Program-made: the position numbers and the translations under genes
Notes under the pieces: model-generated
The model's database searches: none
Seen by the model: only the letters and a program-made list of their open reading frames with translations
Told to the model about the DNA's origin: nothing
Shown: piece after piece, positions 2,199 to 63,211 of the stretch
How the letters are laid out: each line of letters opens with the position of its first letter
How positions within the stretch are numbered: position 1 is the stretch's first letter
Source of the DNA: Candidatus Sumerlaeia bacterium
GTDB lineage: Bacteria; Sumerlaeota; Sumerlaeia; SLMS01; JAHLLQ01
Reading direction: 5' to 3'
Assembly (NCBI GenBank): GCA_019634695.1
Contig: JAHCAW010000004.1
Coordinates: 64,831 to 128,830 of the forward strand
Length of the DNA: 64,000 nt

Positions 2199-5100
2199 GT
2201 GAACGTGACGCGCAGAAAGTTCCTGAAGTGGTCGCTCGGCGGCGCGGTGGTCGCCGTCGGCAGCCTGCAACTGGGCTATGCGCTCGACGGCCTGCAACCG
2301 GCCGTGGGCGTCGAGAACCCGTTGCTGTCGTATCCCAACCGCGACTGGGAGAAGGTGTATCGCAACATCTTCCAGCCCGACCAGTCCTACTACTTCATGT
2401 GCACGCCGAACTGCACGCACAACTGCCTGCTGCGGGCGGAGGTGAAGAACGGCGTCGTGGTGCGCGTGGGGCCGTCGATGCGCTATCACGAAGCGACGGA
2501 CCTGTACGGGACGAAGGCGAGCCAGCGCTGGGATCCGCGCATCTGCAACAAGGGGACGATCCTGCCGCGGCGCATTCACGGCGACCGGCGCGTGAAGCAC
2601 CCGATGGTGCGCAAGGGCTACAAGCAGTGGGTCGAGCAGGGGTTCCCGCGCGATGCGAACGGCCTGCCGCCGGCCGAGATGTTCCGCCGGGGCGAGGACG
2701 AGTACATCGAGGTTACCTGGGAGGAGGCGTTCGCGCTGGCGGCCAAGGGGCTGCACGAGACGGCCCGGCGCTACTCGGGCAAGGAGGGCGCGGCGATGCT
2801 GACGCGCCAGGGCTACGACGAGGCGATGGTTGCCAAGGCTGGCGGGGCGGGCACGCGCTGTATGAAGTTCCGCGGCGGCATGCCGGCGCTCGGTCCGATC
2901 AAGCTCTTCGGCCTCTACCGCATGGCGAACATGATGGCCCTCGTCGATGCGAACGTGCGCGGCGTCGGCCCCGACGCGGCTCGCGGCGGCATCGGGTTCG
3001 ACAACTACTCATGGCACACCGACCTGCCGCCCGGGCACCCGATGGTCACCGGCCAGCAGACCGTCGACTTCGACCTGTCGAACACCGAGTACTGCGACGT
3101 CGTGATCTGCTGGGGCATGAACTGGCTGTGCACCAAGATGCCCGACTCGCACTGGCTCACCGAAGCCAAGCTCAAGGGCAAGCGCGTCATCGCGATCATG
3201 ACGGACTACAACGCGACGGCGGCGAAGGCGCACGAGGTGGTGATCGTGCGGCCGGGCACCGACCCGGCGCTGGCGCTCGGCATGGCGCAGGTCATCATCG
3301 CCGAGAAGCTGTACGACGAGGACTTCGTCAAGTCGTTCACGGACCTGCCGCTGCTGGTGCGCACGGACACCGGGACGCTGGTGCGCGCCGGCGACGTGCT
3401 GCCGGGCTACACGAACAAGACGCTCGAACGCACCGAGGTTGCTTCCACACGCGGCGACCTGCCGCCGGCCTACAAGGTCGATCGCGAGTTCGGCGCCGTC
3501 ACGGCCGAGCTGCGCGAGAAGTGGGGCGACCTGCTGATGTGGGACAAGCGCACGAACGCCCCCGTGGCCGTCAACCGCGACGAGGTCGGCAAGTACTTCC
3601 CCGGCGACACGATCGACCCGGCTCTCGAGGGTGAGTTCACTGTCACGATCGACGGCGAGTCCGTTGCCGTCCGCACGGTCTTCTCGCTCGTCCGCCAGCA
3701 CCTCGACGACACCTGGACGCCGGAGGCGACCTCGCGCGTGACGTGGGCGCCCGTCTCGGCGATCCGCAGCCTCGCGCGCCAATGCGCCGCGCACCCCGAG
3801 CGCGTCCTCTTCGCCACTGGCATGGGGCCCAACCAGATGTTCAACGCGGACCTGAAGGACCGCGCGATCTTCCTCGTGGCGGCGCTGACGCGCAACGTCG
3901 GATTCCCCGGCGGCAACGTCGGCAGCTACGCCGGCAACTATCGCTCCGCCTACTTCAACGGCATCCCCCAGTACGTCGGCGAGAATCCCTTCGACATCAA
4001 CCTTGATCCCGACACGCCGGCCCGCGTGCGCACCTTCTTCTCCATGCAGTCGGCGCACTTCTACTCGCACTGCGACCGCCCGCTGCGCGTGCACGGCCGC
4101 AACTTCACCGGCGACACCCACATGCCGACGCCCACCAAGTCGCTCTGGTTCGCCGGCTCGAACTCGCTGCTCGGCAACTCCAAGGGCCACTTCGACGTCG
4201 TGATGAACCTGCTGCGGCATCCCGACTACCGCGCGAAGTCCGAGTACGGCCGCATGATCGAGTGCGTCTTCGTCAACGAGTGGTGGTGGAGCGGCTCGTG
4301 CGAGTACGCCGACATCGTCTTCGCGATCGACAGTTGGGCCGAGTACCGCCAGCACGACGTGACGCAGTCCTGCACGAACCCCTTCATGCAGGTGATGCCG
4401 CTGGGCGAGATTCCGCGCATCCACAACACGCGGTCGAACGCCGAGGTCTACAAGGGCGTCGCGCAGGAGCTGGCGCGCCTGACCGGCGACACGCGCTGCG
4501 CCGACTACTGGGCCTTCATCTCCGACACCCACCGCGCAAAGCCCTACATCCAGCGGATCCTCGACCACTGCAACATGTTCAAGGGCTACCGCGTCGACGA
4601 CCTTGTCGAGCAGTGCAAGCAGGGCATCCCCGCCATGATGATGGGGCCGACGTATCCGAAGTACATTGGCCACCGCCAGAGCATCGAGTCCCGGCCTTGG
4701 TACACCCGCACCGGCCGCCTCGAGTTCTACCGCGACGAGAAGGAGTTCCTCGAGCACGGCGAAAACCTGCCCGTCTACCGCGAGCCGGTCGACTCGACCT
4801 TCTACGAACCCAACGCCATCGTCGCCCAGCCGCATCCGTCGATCCACCCGACGACGCCCGAGCAGTACGGCTTCGATTCCGCCGACATGAGCGGCGACAC
4901 GCTGCAAGTGCGCAATGTCGTCCGCACGGTCGACGAGTTGATGCTCACGAAGCATCCCATGATGGGCCAGGGCTACACGCACATCTGGCTGACGCCCAAG
5001 TACCGCCATGCGGTGCACACCTTCGGCGTGGACATCGACTTCATGTCGCTGCACTTCGGTCCGTTCGGCGACATGTATCGGCACGACAAGCGCAAGCCGT

Positions 5101-6865: not shown

Positions 6866-8515
6866 ATGACGCCCCCCTCTGCCCCCACGCCCAAAGCAAC
6901 GCCGGTCGGCCTGGTGCTCGCCGCCGTCGCGGCCGTCTTCGTGCTCAACTTCCTGATCCTGGGCTATTCGACGCAGATGGCGCTGAAGCCCGCGCCGACG
7001 CGCGTCGCGCCTCCCGCGCCTATCGCCCGCGCGACGCCGGCGCCCGTGCCGCCGCCCGCGCTGCTGGCACGCTTCATCGCCGTTCCGCCGCCGGCGGACC
7101 CGCACGATGCCGCGTGGGCCAACGCGCCGGAGCTCCCCGTGCTCCTCGGGCCGCAGGAAGTCTCGTTGCCCTTCGGCGGCGGATCGGTCGCCGAGGTCTC
7201 GCTGCGTGCGCTGCACGATGGCGATACGATCGCCTTCCGGCTCGAGTGGGCCGACGACTCGGTGAACAGCGCGCGCGCCGTCGATGCGTATCGCGACGGC
7301 GCGGCGCTCCAGTTCCCGCTGGCCGGTTCGCCGACGCCGCCGTCGGCGCTCATGGGCGAGCGCGGCAAGCCGGTCGCCATCTGGCATTGGCGCGCCGACT
7401 GGCAGGATCCTGCGCCCACGGCATCTGCGGCCGAGGCGACATGGTATCCGCCGAACTCGGAACTGGTCGCGCGTGGCTTCGCGCAACCGCCCGCGCCGGC
7501 CGTTGCATGCGTCGAGTATCTCTCCGAGGGCTGGGGCACGCTGACGCGGCAGCCCGCGCACCACGTCGCTGCGCGCGGCAATCACCGCGACGGCGTCTGG
7601 GCTGTGGTCTTCCAGCGTCCGCTCGGTCGCGTCATGCCGCACGAACCGGTCTTCGTCGCCGGCGAATCCACGCATGTCAACATCGCCGTCTGGAATGGAT
7701 CCGAGGGCGACGTCAACGGGCTCAAGTCGGTCTCGACTTCGTGGACGCCGCTCGAGATCGAGAAGCTTCCCGAGTCCGACCGCCTCACCGCGCGTTATGT
7801 TGCGGGCGCGTTGCCGCTCGATCCGACGGACCCCTTCTGGGCCGCGCAGCCCGCACAGGTCGTTGGCCTCGTGCCGCAGCGGCTCGTGCTGCCGTTCGGC
7901 GGGGGAGCGGTCGGCCGGTTGCACTTCCGCGCCGCGCATGACGGGCGCCGGATTGCCTTCCACTTGCAGTGGCGCGACGACACGGCCGACATGGAGAATG
8001 GCGTGGACACCTATCGAGACTCGGTGGCGATGCAGTTCCCGAGCCGCGGCGCCACGACGATGCCATCGCCGCTGATGGGCGAGCGCGACAAGCCGGTCGC
8101 CATCTGGCAGTGGCGCGCCGACTGGCAGGCCGGCGCCGGCGACCGTCTGCGTCGCCAGCCCGCACCCGAAAGCCTGCTCGTCGCCGCCACGTCGTTCGAC
8201 ACGCTGCCGCGCGGGATGTTCGACCGTCCCGTGCCCGAGACCAGCGCCGCCAAGTTCGTCGCCGCCGGCTGGGGTACTCTCACCCGTCAGGTGCGCCAGG
8301 ACATCGCCGCCCATGGCGTTCACGCCGATGGCCACTGGCACGTCGTCTTCGTGCATGACCTGGCCACGGACGATCCCACCGATCCCGCGTTCCGACCCGG
8401 CGAGACCACGGCCGTCAACTTCGCCGTCTGGAACGGCATCGCCCGCGAGGTCAATGGCCTGAAGTCCATCCGCATGGAGTGGATGCCGCTGCACGTCGAG
8501 CCGGCGCCGAAGTGA
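6866..8515 (+). CDS. Putative gamma subunit with two tandem EB_dh (ethylbenzene-dehydrogenase gamma, heme-b-type) domains and an N-terminal membrane anchor
   Basis: N-terminal TM/signal anchor (VGLVLAAVAAVFVLNFLILGY). Two internally repeated modules are visible. Module 1: LRALHDGDTIAFRLEWADDSV...YRDGAALQFP...LMGERGKPVAIWHWRADWQ. Module 2: FRAAHDGRRIAFHLQWRDDTA...YRDSVAMQFP...LMGERDKPVAIWQWRADWQ. Its position after alpha and beta matches type II DMSOR operons. Confidence 0.7.
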   Translation: MTPPSAPTPKATPVGLVLAAVAAVFVLNFLILGYSTQMALKPAPTRVAPPAPIARATPAPVPPPALLARFIAVPPPADPHDAAWANAPELPVLLGPQEVSLPFGGGSVAEVSLRALHDGDTIAFRLEWADDSVNSARAVDAYRDGAALQFPLAGSPTPPSALMGERGKPVAIWHWRADWQDPAPTASAAEATWYPPNSELVARGFAQPPAPAVACVEYLSEGWGTLTRQPAHHVAARGNHRDGVWAVVFQRPLGRVMPHEPVFVAGESTHVNIAVWNGSEGDVNGLKSVSTSWTPLEIEKLPESDRLTARYVAGALPLDPTDPFWAAQPAQVVGLVPQRLVLPFGGGAVGRLHFRAAHDGRRIAFHLQWRDDTADMENGVDTYRDSVAMQFPSRGATTMPSPLMGERDKPVAIWQWRADWQAGAGDRLRRQPAPESLLVAATSFDTLPRGMFDRPVPETSAAKFVAAGWGTLTRQVRQDIAAHGVHADGHWHVVFVHDLATDDPTDPAFRPGETTAVNFAVWNGIAREVNGLKSIRMEWMPLHVEPAPK

Positions 8516-21210: not shown

Positions 21211-21531
21211 ATGCAGGAAATCACACTCCTATACATCCCCTGTCCCTCCGAAGAGGAGGCATGCCGCATCGCACGCCACCTGCTCGACGCGCGCCTTGTC
21301 GCCTGCGCGAACTGGTTCCCGATCCGCAGCATGTACTGGTGGGAGGCAGCACTCGCCGAGGAGGGCGAGGTCGTGCTGCTTGCCAAGACGCTCCCCGCCA
21401 AGGCCGACGCCGTCGAAGCCGCAATCCGCGCCGTCCATCCCTACCAAGTGCCCTGCATCGCCCGTGTCGCAGCCTGCGTGAATGAAGAGTACGGCCGGTG
21501 GATGGAGAAGGAAGTAGATATTAGCCTTTAG
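21211..21531 (+). CDS. cutA: Divalent-cation tolerance protein CutA
   Basis: The 106-aa product contains CANWFPIRSMYWWEAALAEEGEVVLLAKT...HPYQVPCI, the typical CutA1 fold signature. ATG 21211 follows AGGGGGA. Confidence 0.85.
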   Translation: MQEITLLYIPCPSEEEACRIARHLLDARLVACANWFPIRSMYWWEAALAEEGEVVLLAKTLPAKADAVEAAIRAVHPYQVPCIARVAACVNEEYGRWMEKEVDISL

Positions 21532-21685
21532 TTGTTGGCTGTTGGAACGTGCCCTTCTGGAGCGTAGAGCAGCCGGCGGAACAAGCCTCTCCTCGGTCAA
21601 GGCACGAACCACAACCGCATCAGCTCAACAGCCAACAACTAACAACCAACAACTAGCCTCCAACGACTAACATTTTCTCCCCCCC
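21529..21685 (+). repeat. Heptad-periodic inverted-repeat intergenic element A (GT-rich arm, ~80-nt spacer, CA-rich arm abutting the next start codon)
   Basis: TAGTTGTTGGCTGTTG (21529-21544) is a perfect 16/16 complement of CAACAGCCAACAACTA (21626-21641). The CA arm continues as 7-nt units to about 21670. There is an inner stem CGTGCCCTT / AAGGCACG. The local GC content drops relative to the flanks. Confidence 0.6.
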
Positions 21686-22657
21686 ATGCTCCCCTCCTGC
21701 TCCATCGTCATCGTCACCTGGAACCGCCGCAAGGAGCTCGAGCCCTTGCTGGAGTCCGTCTTTGCACAGACAATCGCGGACCGGCTCGAGGTGATCGTTG
21801 TGGACAACGCCTCGACGGACGGGACGGTTGCGTGGCTGCGCGAGGCCTATGCCGGCCGCGTGCGCGTGTTTGCCTACGCGGAGAATCGCGGCGCGTGCGA
21901 CGGGCGCAACGCCGGCATTCGCGCCGCATCCGCGCCGTACGTCTGCTTCCTCGACTCCGACGCGGAGATACTCTCGCCCGACGCCATCGAGCGCTGCCTC
22001 GAGCACCTCGATGCCAATCCCGGCACCGACGCCGTCGCCGCCCCGATCTGGTTCGATCGCGCGAAGACCAATCCCTTCCTGCTCGGCGGTTATGTTACGC
22101 CCGACGGGCACTATCATGGAATCAGTTGCCGGTCGCGCGACGACGAACCCATGCTGCTCTCGACCTGTTTCGCCGTCTGGCGCAAGGCCACCCTGAAGGA
22201 GGTTCGCGGCTTCGATCCGTGGTACTTCTGGGGCATCGAGGACATGGACCTCGGCCTGCGGACCTATCATCGCCGCAAGCGCCACGATCCCGGCGCGCAA
22301 CCCTTCCGCATCGTGCGCGGCGTCGATGTGCTGCACGAGATGTCCACCGCCGGGCGCCACCACGACCCGCGCAGCTTCGAGCAGACTTTCGTGCGCTACG
22401 AGCGCCAGCGCCTCTACATGGTGCTCTCGTACGGCGGCCTCGGCCAATTCCTGCGCGTCGCCGCGCGTGGCCCATTCCGCATCCGCCGCATGGCCGACGC
22501 ATGGGAGCACGTGCTGACGCGGCGCCAGCGCTGGCAGGCCGCCGTCTGGTTTCCGCTGCTGCGCCTGCTGGCCTTGCCGAAGAACCTGCTCGACGTGCGG
22601 CGCAACCACCTCGCGCGCACGACGATGCCGGTCGAGGTGACGGATCAGAGCGCCTGA
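21686..22657 (+). CDS. Family 2 glycosyltransferase
   Basis: Classic GT2 N-terminus: CSIVIVTWNRRKELEPLLESV...VIVVDNASTDGT...ENRGACDGRNAGI...FLDSDAEI. Confidence 0.85.
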   Translation: MLPSCSIVIVTWNRRKELEPLLESVFAQTIADRLEVIVVDNASTDGTVAWLREAYAGRVRVFAYAENRGACDGRNAGIRAASAPYVCFLDSDAEILSPDAIERCLEHLDANPGTDAVAAPIWFDRAKTNPFLLGGYVTPDGHYHGISCRSRDDEPMLLSTCFAVWRKATLKEVRGFDPWYFWGIEDMDLGLRTYHRRKRHDPGAQPFRIVRGVDVLHEMSTAGRHHDPRSFEQTFVRYERQRLYMVLSYGGLGQFLRVAARGPFRIRRMADAWEHVLTRRQRWQAAVWFPLLRLLALPKNLLDVRRNHLARTTMPVEVTDQSA

Positions 22658-23787
22658 CGCACCATGCCGGCGATGCCGCGCCAAGAGTACTCGACCGCCT
22701 TGCCGTGAAACGAGCCGTGCGTGCAGTGGCAGCAGCGAATCTGCCCGCGGCGCTCCCATGCGGCTTCGCTTTGCCACAGCGCCGAGAAGTCGAAGTCGAA
22801 CTGCGCCAGGTTCGCGAACGGCTTGGTGAACTCGCAGTGCGCCACGTCGCCGTTGGAGTAGATCACGCCGACGGCCGAACCGGCCGTGACGCAGGGAAAC
22901 TGCGGCTTGCCGGTGGCGATCATGCGCAGCGTCGCGATCGTGTGCAGGCGATAGGCGTCGGCACGATACGGCGAGCCCTCATTGATGCGCTCAAGGTCCG
23001 CGACGATCTTCGGGAAGTCCTCGACCGGCGGCAGGTCCATGTTGCTCTTCGGGGCAACGTTCGCCTCGCGGATCTCGGGCAGGATGTTCCAGGCCGTGCG
23101 GTTCACGTCGCGCATGATCTCGAAGCCCTGATAGACGGCGGGGGAGACCTCGCGGCGCAGCAGGTCGTTGAGCTCGACCAGTTCGCGGTAGTTCATGCTG
23201 TTGATGATCGTCAGCACGTTGACGGCGACGGCCGGGTACTTCTCCTGCAGCGGCCAGAGCTTGCGCAGCGACTCGATCACTTTGTCGAAGTTGCCCGGCA
23301 CGCCGCGGATGCGGTCGTGCGTCTCGCGCAGGCCATCGAGCGATATCTGGAAGTCGATGCCGACGTCCGGGAACTCCGCCTTGAAGTCCTCGGCCATGCG
23401 GACCAGTTTGTCGGGGAAGAGCGCGTTGGTGTTGATGCGCAGGACGCTTGCCTTGCGGCGCTTGGCGAAGGCGGCGAGCACCTCGGGCAGGTCGCGGCGC
23501 AGGGTCGGCTCGCCGCCGGTCAGGATCAGGATGTCGAACGGCGGCACCGTCTCCGCCAGCCGGTCCACCTGCTCGAGCGTCAGTTCCGGGATGCCGATGT
23601 TGAGGTCCTGCCAGCAGAAGCAATGGTCGCACTTGGCATTGCAGCGCATCGTGATGAAGAGAAACAGGTTGGCGAGCGGGTAGAGCCCCGTGCGCCGGCG
23701 CGTGCGCTTGTTGGCGACGAGCCGTCGGGCGGTGTTGGCGATGATCTGTCTGTCGATTGCTCGCACGGCGCGCCTCACGCGGGCCAT
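22645..23787 (-). CDS. Radical SAM enzyme with a C-terminal SPASM/twitch-like Cys-rich domain
   Basis: CxxxCxxC motif (CNAKCDHC) in LFLFITMRCNAKCDHCF, followed by ILTGGEPTL. C-terminal Cys cluster: FPCVTAGSAV...AHCEF...IRCCHCTHGSF. Confidence 0.8.
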   Translation of the reverse strand: MARVRRAVRAIDRQIIANTARRLVANKRTRRRTGLYPLANLFLFITMRCNAKCDHCFCWQDLNIGIPELTLEQVDRLAETVPPFDILILTGGEPTLRRDLPEVLAAFAKRRKASVLRINTNALFPDKLVRMAEDFKAEFPDVGIDFQISLDGLRETHDRIRGVPGNFDKVIESLRKLWPLQEKYPAVAVNVLTIINSMNYRELVELNDLLRREVSPAVYQGFEIMRDVNRTAWNILPEIREANVAPKSNMDLPPVEDFPKIVADLERINEGSPYRADAYRLHTIATLRMIATGKPQFPCVTAGSAVGVIYSNGDVAHCEFTKPFANLAQFDFDFSALWQSEAAWERRGQIRCCHCTHGSFHGKAVEYSWRGIAGMVRQAL

Positions 23788-55254: not shown

Positions 55255-57129
55255 CTACTCCCACGTTTCCTTGTCGCTGCGCACGGCGCGCGAGTAGAAG
55301 TTGTCCCCGCGCATCAGCTCGTCGTGCGTGCCGACGGCCACGATGCGGCCCGCGTCCAGGATGGCGATCGCGTTGGCATGGCGCACCGTCGCCAGCCGGT
55401 GCGAGACGATGAACGTCGTGCGGTCCTTCATCACGCGGTCGAGCGCACCCTGCACGAGCGCCTGCGATTCCATGTCGAGCGCGCTGGTGGCCTCGTCCAG
55501 GATCAGGATGCGCGGATTGCGGATCAGTGCGCGTGCGATGGCCAGGCGCTGGCGCTGGCCGCCGGAGAGCTTCACCCCGCCGTCGCCGATGCGCGTGTGG
55601 ATGCCCTGCGGCAGATCCGACACGAACTCCCACGCGTTGGCCAGCTTCAGCGCCTCGATGACACGCTGCTCGTCCACTTCGCGCCGGCCGAAGTTCACGT
55701 TGTCCGCGATCGAACCCGCGAAGAACACCGTCTCCTGCGTGACGACGCCGACGAAGCGCCGCAGCGCGCGCAGATCGAAGTCGCGATAGTCATGGCCGTC
55801 CAGGTGGATGCTGCCCGCGTTCGGCCGCACGAAGCCCATCAGCAGCGACAGCACGGTGGACTTGCCGGAGCCGCTGCCGCCGACCAGCGCCACCGCCGTG
55901 CCCGGCGCCACGCTCAGCGAGAAGTCCCGAATCGCCGGAATCTCCGTCTTCGGGTACGTGAACGTGACGTCGCGGAACTCGATCTCGCCGCGGATGTCGT
56001 CCAGCCAGCGCTTGCCCAGGTTCTCCTCGAGGTCCGGCGCGTTCAGGATTTCGATGATCGAATCCACCGATTCGCGCGACTGCGCGATCTGCGGCAGCGT
56101 CGCCACCACCGCGTTCAGGTTGCCCGTCAACGCGACGAAGAAGCCGTTGAACATCAGCACATCGCCCACCGTGATCGCGCCCCGGAAGGCCGCGTACACC
56201 GAACCCGCCATGAAGATCACCTGCATCAGGTTCATCACCACCCATGCCGACGCGCCGAAGAACGCGTTCACAATGTCCAGCCGCCGCGCCTCCTCGAACA
56301 CCCGCGAGATCGACTCGGACACCGTCTCGAGTTCCTCCTCCTCCAGCGCGTGCGCCCGCGTCACCGGGATCATCGTCATCATGTCCGTCAGCCGCGAGCC
56401 CATGCCCTCCACCGACCGCCGGTACGCGTGCGCCGTCGCCGCCAGCCGACGGCTGAAGTGCCGCATCAGCAGCACCGACACCGGCACCAGCAGCACGAAG
56501 AACAGCAGCGCACGCGGCTCGCGCACCAGGATCGCCGCCACCGCCACCACCACCTGAATCGCGAACACCACGAACGTGATCATGATCGCCGGCGGCGCGT
56601 TCTCGATCAGCTCCACGTCGCGGATCGCCTTCGCCTGCAAGCGCCCCACGCTGCCCACGTCGCTCGCCACCAGCGACAGCCGCTGCAACTGCCGGCACAG
56701 GCTGATGCGCAGGTCCCGCCCGATCGCCCGCATCATCTTGCTCTGGTACTTCGCCCGCAGCACGGTCGACGGCACGTTTTGCCCGACCAGCGTCAACGCG
56801 ATGCCCGCGTATACGAGCAACCACGTCAGCCGCCCGTCGCCCTCCACGCCGATCAGGTCCACCATCCGCGCCACCAGGATCGGCATGAACCAGACCGGCG
56901 AATGCTGAAAGCAGAAGAACAGCACGGTCAGCAGCAGGTTGCGTTGATGCCCCTGCAGGCGGTCGCGCACGAACTCGTTCAACTGCCGCCGGCGCAATGC
57001 GTCGGTCGCCGGCTTCGTGGCATGCGAATCGGAGGAAGGCGAGTTCAGGGCGGCGACTCGGGAAGGGACGTTGTTCGCGGTTCGCGGTTCGTCGTTCGAA
57101 TGGTCCGGTTCATGTGCATGCCGATCCAA
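55255..57129 (-). CDS. ABC exporter, fused permease/ATPase (MsbA-like)
   Basis: Six-TM domain, then Walker A GGSGSGKST, signature LSGGQRQRLAIARA and Walker B ILILDEATSALD. The track start is a TTG at 57129 that lies inside repeat element B, so the true start may be further downstream. Confidence 0.85.
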   Translation of the reverse strand: MDRHAHEPDHSNDEPRTANNVPSRVAALNSPSSDSHATKPATDALRRRQLNEFVRDRLQGHQRNLLLTVLFFCFQHSPVWFMPILVARMVDLIGVEGDGRLTWLLVYAGIALTLVGQNVPSTVLRAKYQSKMMRAIGRDLRISLCRQLQRLSLVASDVGSVGRLQAKAIRDVELIENAPPAIMITFVVFAIQVVVAVAAILVREPRALLFFVLLVPVSVLLMRHFSRRLAATAHAYRRSVEGMGSRLTDMMTMIPVTRAHALEEEELETVSESISRVFEEARRLDIVNAFFGASAWVVMNLMQVIFMAGSVYAAFRGAITVGDVLMFNGFFVALTGNLNAVVATLPQIAQSRESVDSIIEILNAPDLEENLGKRWLDDIRGEIEFRDVTFTYPKTEIPAIRDFSLSVAPGTAVALVGGSGSGKSTVLSLLMGFVRPNAGSIHLDGHDYRDFDLRALRRFVGVVTQETVFFAGSIADNVNFGRREVDEQRVIEALKLANAWEFVSDLPQGIHTRIGDGGVKLSGGQRQRLAIARALIRNPRILILDEATSALDMESQALVQGALDRVMKDRTTFIVSHRLATVRHANAIAILDAGRIVAVGTHDELMRGDNFYSRAVRSDKETWE

Positions 57130-57200
57130 TCCGTCCGATCTTTCGCATCGGCCTCATCAGTGCTTCGGCGTGTGCCTCTCGAACCACGAACCACGAACCA
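57073..57200 (-). repeat. Heptad-periodic inverted-repeat intergenic element B
   Basis: GTTCGCGGTTCGCGGTTCG (57073-57091) pairs with CGAACCACGAACCACGAAC (57180-57198). As RNA, that register gives 17 Watson-Crick plus 2 G-U pairs over 19 nt. The arms are 7-nt tandem units (GCGGTTC / GTGGTTC). Confidence 0.5.
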
Positions 57201-57207
57201 TGAAGAA

Positions 57208-58677
57208 CTAAATCTTCAGGAAGATCTTCTTCCGGTACAGCGGATAGGTCAGCACCAGCCACAGGCAGATGTAGAACAACGCAAAGGCCAGCGAGGCGAA
57301 CTTCATCTGCGACGAGCGGCTCACCTCGGCCAGCAGGTCCACCTTCGAGAACACGGTCAGGATCGGATCCTGAATGCCGCGCTCCCAGATCCAGTTGCGC
57401 AGGTTCCACAGCCCCGTGCCGTCCGCCTTCATCCACGTGATGCCCGACATCGCCCGCGCCAGAATGCCCGAGCCGAAGAAGATGAAGATCGCGTTCGTGC
57501 CGAAGACCATGAACGGCCCGGCCCATTTGCGCTGGCCCTTGATGTCCAGCAGATAGTAGCACACCGCTAGGAAGTGCAGCGCGAAGCCCGTCATCGCCAG
57601 CACGTAGCTGCTCGTCCAGATCTTCTTGTTGATCGGGAACTCATAGCCCCAGAACAACCCGGCCACCACGAGCACGTTGCCCGCGAAGAACAGCCCCAGG
57701 CAGATGCGCTCCTTCGACAGTCCCGAGCGCATCCACGTCCCGGTCAGGATACCGGTAAGCACCGTTGCGATTGCCGGGATCGTGCTCAGCAGCCCCTCGG
57801 GGTCCGGGCGGAACCGGTACAGGTGCGCGCCCAGCAGCTTCGCATCGATCCAGTCGTGCAGCAGCCCCGGATACGGCGCGCCCGCCGTCGCGTCCATCAC
57901 CGTGTTCGGCACGCCGCCGCCGAACTGGTGGCCGAAGAAGTGCGCCACAAAGTCGTGCTTGCAGATCACCCAGTAGCCCGCCAGCAGCACCGCCGTCCAC
58001 GCCACGCGCCCGGCCGTCTGCGTGAACAGCATGATGATCGACGCGAAGAAGTACGCCAGCCCGATGCGCTGCAGCACCCCCGGCACCCGCAGCACCCAGC
58101 CCGACACCTCTCCCCCCGCCGCGTTGATAAACTTCACGTCATTCGACATCGGCCAGAAGAAGTGCCGCGGATCGAAACCGACCACGCGCCCGTTGAAGTG
58201 ATCCCAGTTCAGCACGAACCAGGTCACCGCCACCACGAGCACCCCGGCCCCGACCAAGCGCCGGCTGCCCGCCGGCTCGCCCTCGTGCCGCTCGGGCCAG
58301 AACAGCGTCACCCCGATGATCGTCAGGATAAACGGCCCGGTCAGCCGCAGGTTCGGAAAGCCCTGCAGGATCAGCCCCAGCATCACCAGAATGATCGACC
58401 GCCGCGCCACCTGCTCCATCAGCAGAAATCTGTTTGCGCCCTCCCGCAGCCTGCGGTCGAAGGAGAACGTCATCGCGACACCGACGATGAAGAGGAAGAA
58501 CGGAAAGATGAAGTCGGTGGGCGTAAAGCCGTCCCACTTGGCGTGCCCAAGCGGGTGGTACATCGCCCCCCAAGTGCCCGGGTTGTTCACCAGCACCATC
58601 ATGGCGATGGTGATCCCGCGGAAAACGTCGAGCGACACCAGCCGCTCCTTGCCTTGGGCAACCAGCAAACCGGACAT
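57208..58677 (-). CDS. Membrane acyltransferase, heparan-alpha-glucosaminide N-acetyltransferase-like (DUF1624/DUF5009)
   Basis: RLVSLDVFRGITIAMMVLVNNPGTW...HAKWDGFTPTDFIFPFFLFIVGVAM matches the family signature. The protein is polytopic. The start was trimmed to ATG 58677. Confidence 0.75.
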   Translation of the reverse strand: MSGLLVAQGKERLVSLDVFRGITIAMMVLVNNPGTWGAMYHPLGHAKWDGFTPTDFIFPFFLFIVGVAMTFSFDRRLREGANRFLLMEQVARRSIILVMLGLILQGFPNLRLTGPFILTIIGVTLFWPERHEGEPAGSRRLVGAGVLVVAVTWFVLNWDHFNGRVVGFDPRHFFWPMSNDVKFINAAGGEVSGWVLRVPGVLQRIGLAYFFASIIMLFTQTAGRVAWTAVLLAGYWVICKHDFVAHFFGHQFGGGVPNTVMDATAGAPYPGLLHDWIDAKLLGAHLYRFRPDPEGLLSTIPAIATVLTGILTGTWMRSGLSKERICLGLFFAGNVLVVAGLFWGYEFPINKKIWTSSYVLAMTGFALHFLAVCYYLLDIKGQRKWAGPFMVFGTNAIFIFFGSGILARAMSGITWMKADGTGLWNLRNWIWERGIQDPILTVFSKVDLLAEVSRSSQMKFASLAFALFYICLWLVLTYPLYRKKIFLKI

Positions 58678-61499: not shown

Positions 61500-62855
61500 T
61501 CAGCCTTCGATGCCGAGTTCCTTGATGCGACGCTGGAGCGTGCGGCGGCTGATGCCCAGGGCCTCGGCCGCGCGCGTCCGGTTTCCATCGACTGCCGCCA
61601 GCGTGCGCTTCAGGTACAACGTCTCGACCTCCTCGAGCGGCAACCCCATCGGGATCGCCAGCGTGTCGCTCGGGGCGGTCTTCTCGCTCTTGACGGCGCC
61701 CGGCAGGTCGCGCGCCCCCACCGTGTCGCCCTGCAGGAAGACGAACGTGTTCTCCATGATGTTGCGCAGTTCGCGCACGTTGCCGGGCCAGTGGTAGGCT
61801 TGCAGGGCCTCGACGGCGTCGCGCGAGAGCGTCGGCACGGAGCGCCCGTTCTCGCGTGCGAACTCGGCCAGAAAGTGCTGGGCCAGCACCGGAATGTCGG
61901 AGCGGCGATGGCGCAGCGGGGGCGCGACGATCTGCACCACCTTCAGGCGGTAATACAGGTCCTCGCGGAATCGCCCCTCGGCCACCTCCTCCTCGAGGTC
62001 GCGGTTCGTTGCCACGATCAGGCGCACGTCCACCTTGATCGTTTCGTTGCCGCCGACGCGCTGGATTTCGCGCTGCTCCAGCACGCGCAGCAACTTCACC
62101 TGCATCGACAGCGGAATCTCGCCGATTTCGTCCAGAAACAGCGTGCCGTTGTTGGCCACCTCGAAGCGCCCCGGCCGGCGCGACACCGCGCCCGTGAACG
62201 CCCCGCGCTCGTGTCCGAACAACTCGCTTTCCAGCAACGTCTCCGGCAACGCCGCGCAGTGCACCGGGATGAAGTCCTTGCGCGCCCGCGGGCTCATCTG
62301 GTGCAGCGCCCGCGCCACCAGTTCCTTGCCCGTGCCCGACTCGCCCTGCACCAGCACCGTCGCCTTCGTCGGCCCCACCTGACGGATCATCTGATAGAGC
62401 TGCTGCATCTCGGCCGAATCGCCCACCATGCCCTCGATGCCGAAGCGCCGGTCGATCTGCTGGCGCAGCTCGAAGTTCTCGCGCAGCAGCCGCCGGTGCT
62501 CGGCCGCCTTCTCCACCAGCACCCGCAACTCCTTCACGTTCACCGGCTTCGTCAGGTAATCGAACGCGCCCTCCTTCAGCGCATCGACGGCCGACTCGAT
62601 CGTGCCGTGCGCCGTCAGGATGATGACCGCCGGCGCCGGGTTCAGCGTCAGCGCATGGCGCAGCACGCCCAGCCCGTCGATGCCGTCCATGCGCAGATCC
62701 GTCACCACCACGTCCACATCGTCGCTGTTGAGGATATGGATCGCCTCCTCGCCATTGGCCGCCGTCAGCACGTTGTTGTCCGTGCGCCCAAAGGCAAGGC
62801 GCAGGCCCTCGAGCACATCGGGCTGGTCGTCGATGAGAAGCAGATTGGCGGGCAT
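61500..62855 (-). CDS. Sigma-54-dependent response regulator (NtrC/AtoC type: REC + AAA+ + Fis HTH)
   Basis: REC domain: LLIDDQPDV...VVTDLRMDGIDG. AAA+ motifs: GESGTGKELVARALH, GAFTGA. C-terminal HTH: RTRAAEALGISRRTLQRRIKEL. Confidence 0.9.
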   Translation of the reverse strand: MPANLLLIDDQPDVLEGLRLAFGRTDNNVLTAANGEEAIHILNSDDVDVVVTDLRMDGIDGLGVLRHALTLNPAPAVIILTAHGTIESAVDALKEGAFDYLTKPVNVKELRVLVEKAAEHRRLLRENFELRQQIDRRFGIEGMVGDSAEMQQLYQMIRQVGPTKATVLVQGESGTGKELVARALHQMSPRARKDFIPVHCAALPETLLESELFGHERGAFTGAVSRRPGRFEVANNGTLFLDEIGEIPLSMQVKLLRVLEQREIQRVGGNETIKVDVRLIVATNRDLEEEVAEGRFREDLYYRLKVVQIVAPPLRHRRSDIPVLAQHFLAEFARENGRSVPTLSRDAVEALQAYHWPGNVRELRNIMENTFVFLQGDTVGARDLPGAVKSEKTAPSDTLAIPMGLPLEEVETLYLKRTLAAVDGNRTRAAEALGISRRTLQRRIKELGIEG

Positions 62856-62878
62856 GGAGGGCTCCGGGAGCGGGGGAA

Positions 62879-63155
62879 GTTGTTGGTTGTTGGTGACTAG
62901 TTGTTGGTGATTAGTTGTTGGTGATTAGTTGTTGGTTATTAGTGGTTGGTCATTAGAAGCGAACGTTGTGCCGAAGATCGGAACCCGAGTTGCCCGTCGA
63001 AGCCTTGGCGAAGACGGGAGCCTTTGACGGAGACGAAGGCGTCAGCGACCGGCATTCCCCAGCCTTCCATCAAGCCTCTGTCCCTTCTCCTGCCACCATC
63101 CGCCACAACTCTCCACCCACCAAGAACCAACAACTAATAACTAATAACTAATAAA
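62879..63155 (-). repeat. Heptad-periodic inverted-repeat intergenic element C (largest copy)
   Basis: On the plus strand, 62879-62956 is 11 consecutive heptads: GTTGTTG GTTGTTG GTGACTA GTTGTTG GTGATTA GTTGTTG GTGATTA GTTGTTG GTTATTA GTGGTTG GTCATTA. 63117-63155 carries the same heptads inverted (CCACCAAGAACCAACAACTAATAACTAATAACTAATAAA). There is a perfect 14-nt complement between 62924-62937 and 63125-63138. Confidence 0.65.
62959..62973 (-). promoter_or_regulatory. Weak sigma-54-type -24/-12 candidate inside the spacer of element C
   Basis: The minus strand reads CGGCACAACGTTCGC. It has GG-N10-GC spacing and resembles TGGCAC-N5-TTGC with two core mismatches. It lies about 105 nt upstream of the NtrC-type gene start. 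Confidence 0.25.
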
Positions 63156-63166
63156 CCCGAATTCCG

Positions 63167-63211
63167 CTCTCTGCCCTCTGCCCTCCGCCCTCCGCCCTCT
63201 GCCCTCCCCTC
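63167..63211 (-). repeat. C-rich (minus strand G-rich) heptad array abutting the DUF502 stop codon; G-quadruplex-type sequence
   Basis: Plus strand: CTCTCTGCCCTCTGCCCTCCGCCCTCCGCCCTCTGCCCTCCCCTC. The minus strand therefore has seven GGG(G) runs separated by 1-4 nt. Confidence 0.6.

Follow-up and report, generated by a model that had tools for sequence, protein, structure and literature searches.

Paired heptanucleotide arrays in an intergenic spacer of a Sumerlaeota genome and a compositional rule for heptad arrays beside start and stop codons

Results

The DNA analysed here is a stretch of 64,000 nt (below, the window) from contig JAHCAW010000004.1 of a Candidatus Sumerlaeia bacterium, phylum Sumerlaeota. 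Its G+C content is 67.6%. The best named matches of its CysS and of its response regulator come likewise from Candidatus Sumerlaeia/Sumerlaeota, and one NCBI protein from a metagenome-assembled genome is 100% identical to the regulator. The spacer between cutA and the downstream gene of a family 2 glycosyltransferase (GT2) is occupied by two complementary runs of 7-nt units (heptads), a G/T-rich one after the cutA stop codon (the GT arm) and a C/A-rich one before the GT2 start (the CA arm). This spacer is referred to as element A; two more elements of the same build, B and C, lie in the same window. Heptad arrays in these and other genomes are poor in G before gene starts and poor in C after gene stops.

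Structure of element A

An earlier description of element A made from the letters alone (the sequence-only reading) claimed a perfect stem beginning at the cutA stop, a CA arm built in 7-nt steps, and stop codons in all frames of that arm. All three are borne out. The segment TAGTTGTTGGCTGTTG at 21529–21544, whose first letters are the cutA stop codon (21529–21531), is the exact reverse complement of 21626–21641, giving a 16-bp perfect stem. With mismatches allowed, the pairing extends over 30 nt (21515–21544 with 21626–21655, 80%), and there is an alternative register in which 21529–21543 pairs with 21641–21655 (93%). Tandem Repeats Finder (TRF) reports period 7 at 21634–21655 and period 14 at 21627–21672 (3.3 copies). 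The stop codons inside the CA arm, TAA at 21640, TAG at 21654 and TAA at 21668, fall in frames 1, 0 and 2, respectively. Even the odd CAGCC of the CA arm has its mirror, GGCTG, in the GT arm.

Folded as RNA, element A has a free energy of −51 kcal/mol (z-score −2.8), and the minimum free energy (MFE) structure consists of the long-range stem and an inner stem of 6 bp, CGUGCC with GGCACG (21548–21553 with 21601–21606). An inner stem had been proposed by the sequence-only reading in a longer version with arms of 9 and 8 nt; the 6 bp stand, while the longer version needs a bulge.

The CA arm stops 13 nt upstream of the GT2 ATG. The leader from 21618 to 21685 (68 nt) contains only four G (6%, compared with 32% in the window), five ACA motifs, and no ATG, GTG or TTG. 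The GT2 gene has no Shine-Dalgarno (SD) motif, either in the window or in the syntenic relative L202; a GGAG-like motif is found in 34 of the 53 called genes (~64%) of close relatives. The 16-bp perfect stem leaves the ribosome-binding region of the GT2 gene uncovered.

At up to one mismatch, CCAACAACTA occurs 14 times in the window compared with 0.48 expected occurrences, and 12 of these 14 are inside elements A and B. The same two elements head the list of long-range inverted repeats of the window. An Rfam scan of the window gave no match at the gathering score, and assignment of the elements to an Rfam family was rejected; at E ≤ 1, element A had chance matches to eukaryotic families alone, and element B had none. 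A scan for promoters and terminators in 21300–21800 found nothing.

Elements B and C

Each of the three elements in the 64 kb has the same order of parts: a stop codon, a G-containing arm, a spacer, a G-poor arm and a start codon. Element B spans 62856–63211 and element C 57079–57210, both on the minus strand. The sequence-only reading had announced two further copies of element A. The architecture is indeed seen three times, always with the CA arm, or its G-poor counterpart, towards the downstream gene, whereas the elements are not copies of one sequence but low-complexity arrays of differing length without homology to one another. Their units are CAACAAC/TAACAAC in A, the 14-mer CCAACAACTAATCA in B and CGAACCR in C, and each arm is complementary to its own partner although the units differ among elements. 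The spacers are unique and mutually unrelated among the sequences compared in this analysis.

The fold z-scores are −3.5 for element B and −1.7 for element C. In the MFE structure of B, the GT arm pairs with the CA arm, and the outermost helix is formed by G-rich heptads paired with the SD/AUG region of the downstream response-regulator gene; the GT arm of B also takes part in inverted repeats I1–I3 and I12. In the MFE structure of C, 57199–57178 is paired with 57100–57079.

Turnover among relatives

A comparison for element A is provided by L202, a syntenic contig of a close relative (94% amino acid identity in CysS and 93% in GT2; 73% identity at 4-fold sites). In this relative the gene order is retained and the spacer between cutA and the GT2 gene is 66 nt long. 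It has neither arm of element A, and CGAACCA (2.4 copies) alone stands before the GT2 ATG. The C-terminus of CutA is EKEVDISL* in the window (21505–21531) and EAQITPPV* in L202 (7618–7650). Since L202 lacks the arms and has a different CutA C-terminus, the array in the window has overwritten the last codons of cutA and supplied the stop codon.

Element B is retained in the relative L206 (97% identity) with fewer units in all repeat tracts: the CA arm is shorter by about two units, three TTATTAG units are gone from the GT arm, and the G-rich heptads are present in two copies. The spacer of B is 83% identical between the window and L206, against 77% identity at 4-fold sites of the neighbouring gene. 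In relatives with 80–91% response-regulator identity, including L207 and L209, element B is absent. Its place is taken by a 13-nt spacer in the 91% and 81% relatives and by unrelated spacers of 70–109 nt in the 87%, 82% and 80% relatives. The density of period-7 arrays is about one per 16 kb in the window; in unrelated metagenome contigs, of which 450 kb were scanned, it is one per 150 kb.

Judging from these comparisons, the elements are heptanucleotide arrays that grew in place by slippage within the Sumerlaeia lineage and turn over fast, being neither mobile copies nor horizontally acquired. Their composition had been taken as foreign to the surrounding sequence. Horizontal transfer is not indicated: because close relatives have no arrays or shorter ones, the atypical composition is attributed to repeat growth within the lineage.

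Polarity of CAACAAC-type arrays in other phyla

Similar arrays were collected by scanning one genome per species for CCAACAACTANNNNCCAACAACTA. This gave at least 120 stretches, with several loci per genome; the counts below are among the matches listed. These come mostly from filamentous cyanobacteria and Bacteroidota, and also from Chloroflexota, Acidobacteriota, Planctomycetota, Hydrogenedentota, Poribacteria and a few other groups. The CAACAAC/TAACAAC unit was recovered mainly in Stigonema, Calothrix, Tolypothrix, Scytonema and Fischerella. We oriented 101 arrays by their C/A strand relative to genes, the latter being simple long open reading frame (ORF) calls.

A gene start is located within 30 nt 3' of the CA arm in 42 cases and of the GT arm in 3 (p = 9e-10). 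Conversely, a stop codon is followed by the GT arm in 35 cases and by the CA arm in 7, and in 14 of these 35 stop-abutting arrays the array's own first TAG serves as the stop codon, as it does in element A. An arm complementary in at least 12 of 14 nt is located within 300 nt upstream of 40 arrays and downstream of 4 (p = 2e-8), that is, the order 5'-GT...CA-3' prevails. The 40 non-cyanobacterial arrays show the same preference, with the CA arm before a start in 19 cases compared with 2, and the partner upstream in 12 compared with 1; their stop bias (11 vs 6) is not significant. The orientation bias suspected from the three elements of the window is real and general. A GT...CA inverted repeat is identical when read on either strand, so its orientation is informative only relative to the CA...GT order (4 vs 40 cases). 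For the same reason the polarity is a single statement about the sense strand of the mRNA, whatever the gene arrangement.

Of the 25 arrays with both a partner and a downstream start, 21 have the stop codon of a co-directional upstream ORF at −21 to +15 nt from the beginning of the paired GT arm. Hence the hairpin covers the entire intercistronic spacer, with the stop and the start at its two feet. Array and ATG are separated by a median of about 8 nt, usually too little for an SD motif, and SD motifs are rare there. One example is the spacer before atpG in two Flavobacterium genomes (L096, ~4180–4260; L103, ~1210–1310; atpG recognised by its N-terminal sequence), where the whole hairpin consists of TAA, a G/T arm, a short loop, a CAACAAC arm, 7 nt and ATG. 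The long ORF upstream of it is presumably atpA, given the usual gene order. The atp operon of Escherichia coli is a classical case of coupling via mRNA structure.

The rule is independent of the repeat unit

In the same loci there are 180 other period-7 arrays with unrelated units, 93 of them no more than 30 nt away from a start or stop codon. Arrays ending at most 30 nt before a start have less G than C on the sense strand in 37 cases and the opposite in 7, with mean contents of 11% G and 29% C. Arrays beginning at most 30 nt after a stop have more G than C in 38 cases compared with 3, with mean contents of 7% C and 29% G. Ordinary non-repeat flanks from the same loci have nearly no skew. The rule is compositional, G-poor before starts and C-poor after stops, and not sequence-specific.

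The rule is also seen in a Mu-like prophage (Portal_Mu, Phage_Mu_Gp36; L211, 8400–13100) of an 82% Sumerlaeota relative; the prophage is dense in such arrays, with no fewer than seven different ones in its intergenic spacers. The pair at 8440–8625 of L211 (minus strand) combines a purine-rich arm over the stop codon with a pyrimidine arm that is complementary to it, free of G and 12 nt upstream of the next ATG.

Coordinates of the features in the window are collected in Table 1.

Table 1. Features of elements A, B and C and adjacent genes in the window
Feature	Coordinates	Strand	Basis
cutA (CutA1) coding sequence; last codons and TAG stop (21529–21531) from heptad array	21211..21531	+	Pfam CutA1, E 1.8e-29
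Element A, 5' G/T-rich heptad arm, gTAGata tTAGcct tTAGttg tTGGctg tTGG; 3 C in 35 nt	21513..21547	+	Complementarity; perfectly paired part 21529–21544
Element A, spacer/loop with small inner stem	21548..21625	+	MFE; no second copy among sequences compared
Element A, 3' C/A-rich arm, CAACAGC CAACAAC TAACAAC CAACAAC TAGCCTC CAACGAC TAA	21626..21672	+	TRF, period 7/14
C/T-rich leader without SD motif, abutting the GT2 ATG	21673..21685	+	Sequence
GT2 glycosyltransferase gene, 3' of element A	21686..22657	+	Pfam Glycos_transf_2, E 3e-29
ABC-transporter ORF; true start uncertain, ATG at 57023 out of frame	55255–57129	-	Pfam ABC_membrane, ABC_tran
Element C, 3' arm, CGAACGA CGAACCG CGAACCG CGAACAA, upstream of or within the start region of the ABC-transporter ORF	57066..57100	-	MFE
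Element C, 5' arm: stop TAG (57210–57208) of HGSNAT/DUF5009-like gene, then TTCTTCA and TGGTTCG x3.6	57178..57210	-	TRF 57180–57204; Pfam
Sigma-54-dependent response-regulator gene, downstream of element B	61500–62855	-	Pfam
Element B, 3' arm: five 14-nt CCAACAACTAATCA-like units (62879–62956), then C-rich leader with GGAG to ATG 62855	62856..62956	-	TRF 62886–62956, period 14, 5.1 copies, 92% matches
Element B, central spacer, ~160 nt	62957..63119	-	No other copy found
Element B, 5' G/T-rich arm, TTTATTAG TTATTAG TTATTAG TTGTTGG TTCTTGG	63120..63155	-	Inverted repeats, MFE
G-rich heptads GGGCAGA/GGGCGGA (G3N4), abutting the DUF502 stop (63214–63212)	63163..63211	-	TRF period 7, 5.4 copies

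Discussion

Relation to known heptamer repeats

To our knowledge, no function has been established since 1990 for the short tandemly repeated repetitive (STRR) heptamers. They were described in that year in Calothrix, and heptamers are the most abundant long simple sequence repeats (SSRs) in bacteria, as cited in PMC4692102 and PMC4679880. In filamentous cyanobacteria STRRs are intergenic 7-nt units, often arranged as paired arrays that form a hairpin between co-transcribed genes (hupS and hupL among them), and they are highly variable among relatives (PMC2670836, PMC4692102). The elements described here agree with heptameric long SSRs of the STRR type in having 7-nt units repeated head-to-tail beyond chance, in occupying several intergenic loci within 64 kb and in varying between close relatives. 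They differ in the host, a Sumerlaeota bacterium of high G+C content (67.6%), and in being short (3–5 units) and few (3 per 64 kb). Element A resembles STRRs, but its host is not a heterocystous or filamentous cyanobacterium, hence it is not an STRR in the strict taxonomic sense.

The TAACTGA repeats of marine Beggiatoaceae, some Cyanobacteria and Bacteroidetes are close in other respects (MacGregor 2015, PMC4679880). Their "forward" heptamers lie within a few nt of start codons, where they replace the canonical ribosome-binding site; they contain stops in every frame and are patchily distributed over phyla. Element A, too, is a start-proximal repeat in one orientation before a start without a ribosome-binding site, but its unit is not TAACTGA. 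Moreover, among the TAACTGA sets 169 are direct and one is indirect, whereas all three elements here are paired.

We found no prior statement, in the literature searched, of a polarity shared across phyla or of the stop and start standing at the feet of the hairpin. Element A is a heptad repeat of a known kind in a new phylum; the polarity and the placement of the feet extend known observations and do not make a new category.

Proposed role in translation

We tentatively favour the reading that such an element works in the mRNA as a repeat-built leader and hairpin which tunes the translation of the downstream gene or couples it to the upstream one. If element A is transcribed as part of one message, its 3' arm would present a G-depleted, ACA-rich stretch free of start codons in front of an ATG without SD. 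Being depleted in G, this arm is unable to fold on itself and could offer the 30S subunit and protein S1 an open landing place or standby site, with an enhancer effect on initiation. The 5' arm, its complement, would be fixed at the upstream gene's stop codon, so that the foot of the hairpin, where it forms in vivo, would be the cutA stop. A ribosome completing cutA would then melt the 16-bp stem and release the whole leader. In this way the expression or stability of the downstream cistron could be tied to upstream translation and adjusted by the gain or loss of repeats.

Parts of this scheme have precedents. In enterobacteria, leaders of the C/A-rich and ACA type stimulate translation and function as standby sites; they are silenced by GcvB, a small RNA with a G/U-rich region (PMC3879156, PMC5934652). 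The leader of element A is likewise G-poor and ACA-rich, and the complement would here act in cis. The enterobacterial ACA sites are short, non-repetitive and accompanied by SD, so the likeness is one of mechanism, not of family. Translational coupling was proposed, as an alternative to transcript stabilisation, for the STRR hairpins between hupS and hupL (PMC2670836).

Coupling would agree well with the predicted fold of element B, where the start region pairs with the sequence that directly follows the stop codon. For element A the agreement is partial. The paired part of its CA arm ends about 30–45 nt upstream of the ATG, so that the hairpin leaves the initiation region accessible, and a strict coupling through occlusion suits B better than A. 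In four of five elements the sense RNA, as modelled, is less stable than the antisense; weaker folding of this strand would be in line with selection that favours an open leader over a hairpin of maximal stability.

The pairing itself was examined by substitution tests. In 48 arm pairs, G-U and A-C mismatches were counted by sense strand (61 vs 75, p = 0.26); the apparent asymmetry is explained by ascertainment, as the seed pattern fixes one of the arms. RNAalifold with pair counts, applied to two B orthologues, gave three compensatory and 12 wobble-preserved pairs; the structure, however, comes from these two sequences themselves, and as good a result was reached by 60 of 500 shuffles.

Several observations weigh against the proposed role. 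When the structure predicted from one B orthologue was scored on the other, pairs were broken as often on the sense strand (21 kept, 38 broken) as on the antisense (24 and 32). Neither the B-orthologue nor the arm-pair tests gave substitution evidence for selected RNA pairing. In element A the last heptads are free whether or not the stem forms. Elsewhere, roughly every second array lacks a complementary partner, and 16 of 82 arrays are located between convergent genes. As the relatives demonstrate, an element is dispensable over a short evolutionary scale. Finally, cutA and the GT2 gene are only presumed, from synteny and spacing, to be co-transcribed.

We also consider a broader proposal, more speculative than the role just described and rather doubtful at present, that complementary heptad arrays of many phyla are a convergent and evolvable device for handing ribosomes over between cistrons. 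The hairpin would juxtapose the stop with the next start and permit SD-free re-initiation across 100–350 nt, at a strength set by slippage. Those re-initiating would be terminating ribosomes, or 30S subunits drawn to the released 3' arm, which is G-free and holds no SD and no start codon. If true, this would provide a function for the 35-year-old STRR puzzle and a general grammar, "G-poor before start, C-poor after stop", for bacterial intergenic repeats.

Alternative explanations

The strongest competitor, possible though less probable than the role in translation, is that the arrays are by-products of slippage without function. They would expand in slack intergenic DNA up to the coding sequence, selection would remove harmful orientations, and the hairpin would be incidental or the result of inverted copying. 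Harmful in this sense would be G/T-rich arrays that put TTG or GTG starts, SD-like GG and structure before a gene, and C-rich, G-poor arrays behind a stop, which might act as loading sites for Rho. The fast gain, loss and copy-number change agree with this account, and so do the arrays that reach or cross start and stop codons, as at the overwritten tail of cutA and in the 14 arrays whose first TAG is a stop. The failure of the substitution tests to support a structure points the same way, as does the distribution of arrays over types of intergenic regions, which is like that of intergenic regions in general. The excess of heptamers is ascribed to polymerase slippage in those passages of PMC4679880 and PMC4692102 that cite Mrazek 2007. 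Slippage alone leaves it unexplained that about 40% of arrays, and all three elements here, have a complementary arm of the same unit no farther than 300 nt away, though arrays are rare and their units diverse. Nor does it explain why both arms have changed together in A and B, and the skew of the arrays is far above that of ordinary flanks.

A hairpin for RNA processing or stability is an unlikely alternative. Here the duplex, of 30 bp in A and more than 50 bp in B, would be an RNase III substrate or an exonuclease barrier that uncouples the half-lives of the cistrons or sets downstream expression, in the manner of the hmw 5'-untranslated region (5'-UTR) of Haemophilus influenzae or of REP/BIME elements. 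In the former, upstream of hmw1A and hmw2A, a heptamer SSR and its complement form the arms of a long hairpin that is cut by RNase III and sets both expression and repeat dynamics (PMC12721329). STRR hairpins were proposed to raise transcript stability as well (PMC2670836). The hmw array is known to be transcribed, with a demonstrated role of RNase III and of the repeat number in downstream expression, whereas the elements described here are known from sequence and predicted fold. The geometry also differs: in hmw the repeat arm is 5' and pyrimidine-rich, the 3' arm is G-rich and the location is a promoter-proximal 5'-UTR, while here the G-poor arm is 3' and the location intercistronic. Many arrays are unpaired, a nuclease site needs no G-free arm beside an ATG, and the sense strand is the less stable one, all of which speaks against processing.

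Even less likely, the repeats could be a binding array for a protein with about 7 nt per domain that recognises single-stranded RNA or DNA (S1, cold-shock proteins, Hfq or another), or a Rho loading site, so that the mRNA carries a titratable operator. The CA arm is suitably periodic, single-stranded and C/A-rich, and such a role was proposed both for Nostoc heptamers (bioRxiv 10.1101/2022.06.06.494920) and for the TAACTGA repeats (PMC4679880). However, the arrays are not linked to any candidate protein, and the polarity holds for dozens of unrelated units, which argues for a compositional property rather than for a sequence-specific reader.

An origin from a mobile element of the MITE or REPIN type, with the arms as terminal inverted repeats, is largely refuted here and very improbable. 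Inverted arms do flank a spacer, and the entire 300–350 nt of element B are missing in the 91% relative, with 13 nt in their place. REP/BIME/REPIN elements are likewise intergenic inverted-repeat hairpins between or after genes; they have conserved units of 20–40 nt dispersed by the RAYT transposase, whereas here there is neither a conserved unit nor a conserved spacer, and the arms are tandem heptads varying by whole units. Instead of the many near-identical copies expected of such families, the sequences compared in this analysis have unique, unrelated spacers and differing arms, and no target-site duplication is evident. The CAACAAC-type pattern gave only four matches in the viral collection, and a phage origin was rejected on this ground.

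An intrinsic terminator or attenuator between cutA and the GT2 gene can be considered rejected: although a stable hairpin lies just 3' of the stop codon, none was predicted in 21300–21800, the A/T-rich stem encloses a loop of 81 nt and lacks a U-tract at the 3' foot, and the synteny of cutA and GT2 is retained in L202 with a 66-nt spacer.

Implications

Heptad arrays stand out sharply in the high-G+C genomes of Sumerlaeota, a candidate phylum with few genomes, and the compositional rule makes a vague class of repeats testable. If the arrays tune or couple translation, as we tentatively propose, they would provide cheap and rapidly evolvable control over a glycosyltransferase, a sigma-54 regulator with a glycosyltransferase, and an ABC exporter. 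If they do nothing, the rule still indicates which sequences are tolerated beside start and stop codons.

Additional observations

A short-read assembly of the same genome contains a Logan contig (L001, SRR25057006; window 21589–22992) that breaks within the loop of element A. Such a break is expected when an assembler meets an inverted repeat, and elements of this kind may therefore be under-represented or cut in metagenome-assembled genomes (MAGs).

Beside element B, the five to six G3N4 heptads at 63163–63211 (minus strand) constitute a canonical G-quadruplex motif. They are reminiscent of the G-quadruplex heptamers of Xanthomonas and Nostoc (GGGNATC; PMC4692102), but the unit differs, and in the predicted fold they are paired with the C-rich start region. 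A sigma-54 promoter was considered in the spacer of B, where a GG-N10-GC box, CGGCACAACGTTCGC (62959–62973, minus strand), lies just upstream of the CA arm and is kept in L206. It was rejected, as matches with two mismatches number 43 in the window compared with 67 in shuffled sequences and the box may be due to chance.

At the end of a contig from a Bryobacteraceae MAG (L091, 7270–7531), CAACAAC-type heptads are embedded in what by eye appears to be a longer tandem unit of the form CGAACCAACAACTACGAACCAACAACTAACAACGCCCGGCCGG..., a higher-order repeat unlike the simple arrays elsewhere. In unrelated metagenome contigs with GT2 homologues, AACTGTG (3.6 copies) ends 12 nt before the start of a GT2 homologue, and another array consists of 4.4 copies of TGGGATT (L167, 3964–3988; L199, 1404–1434).

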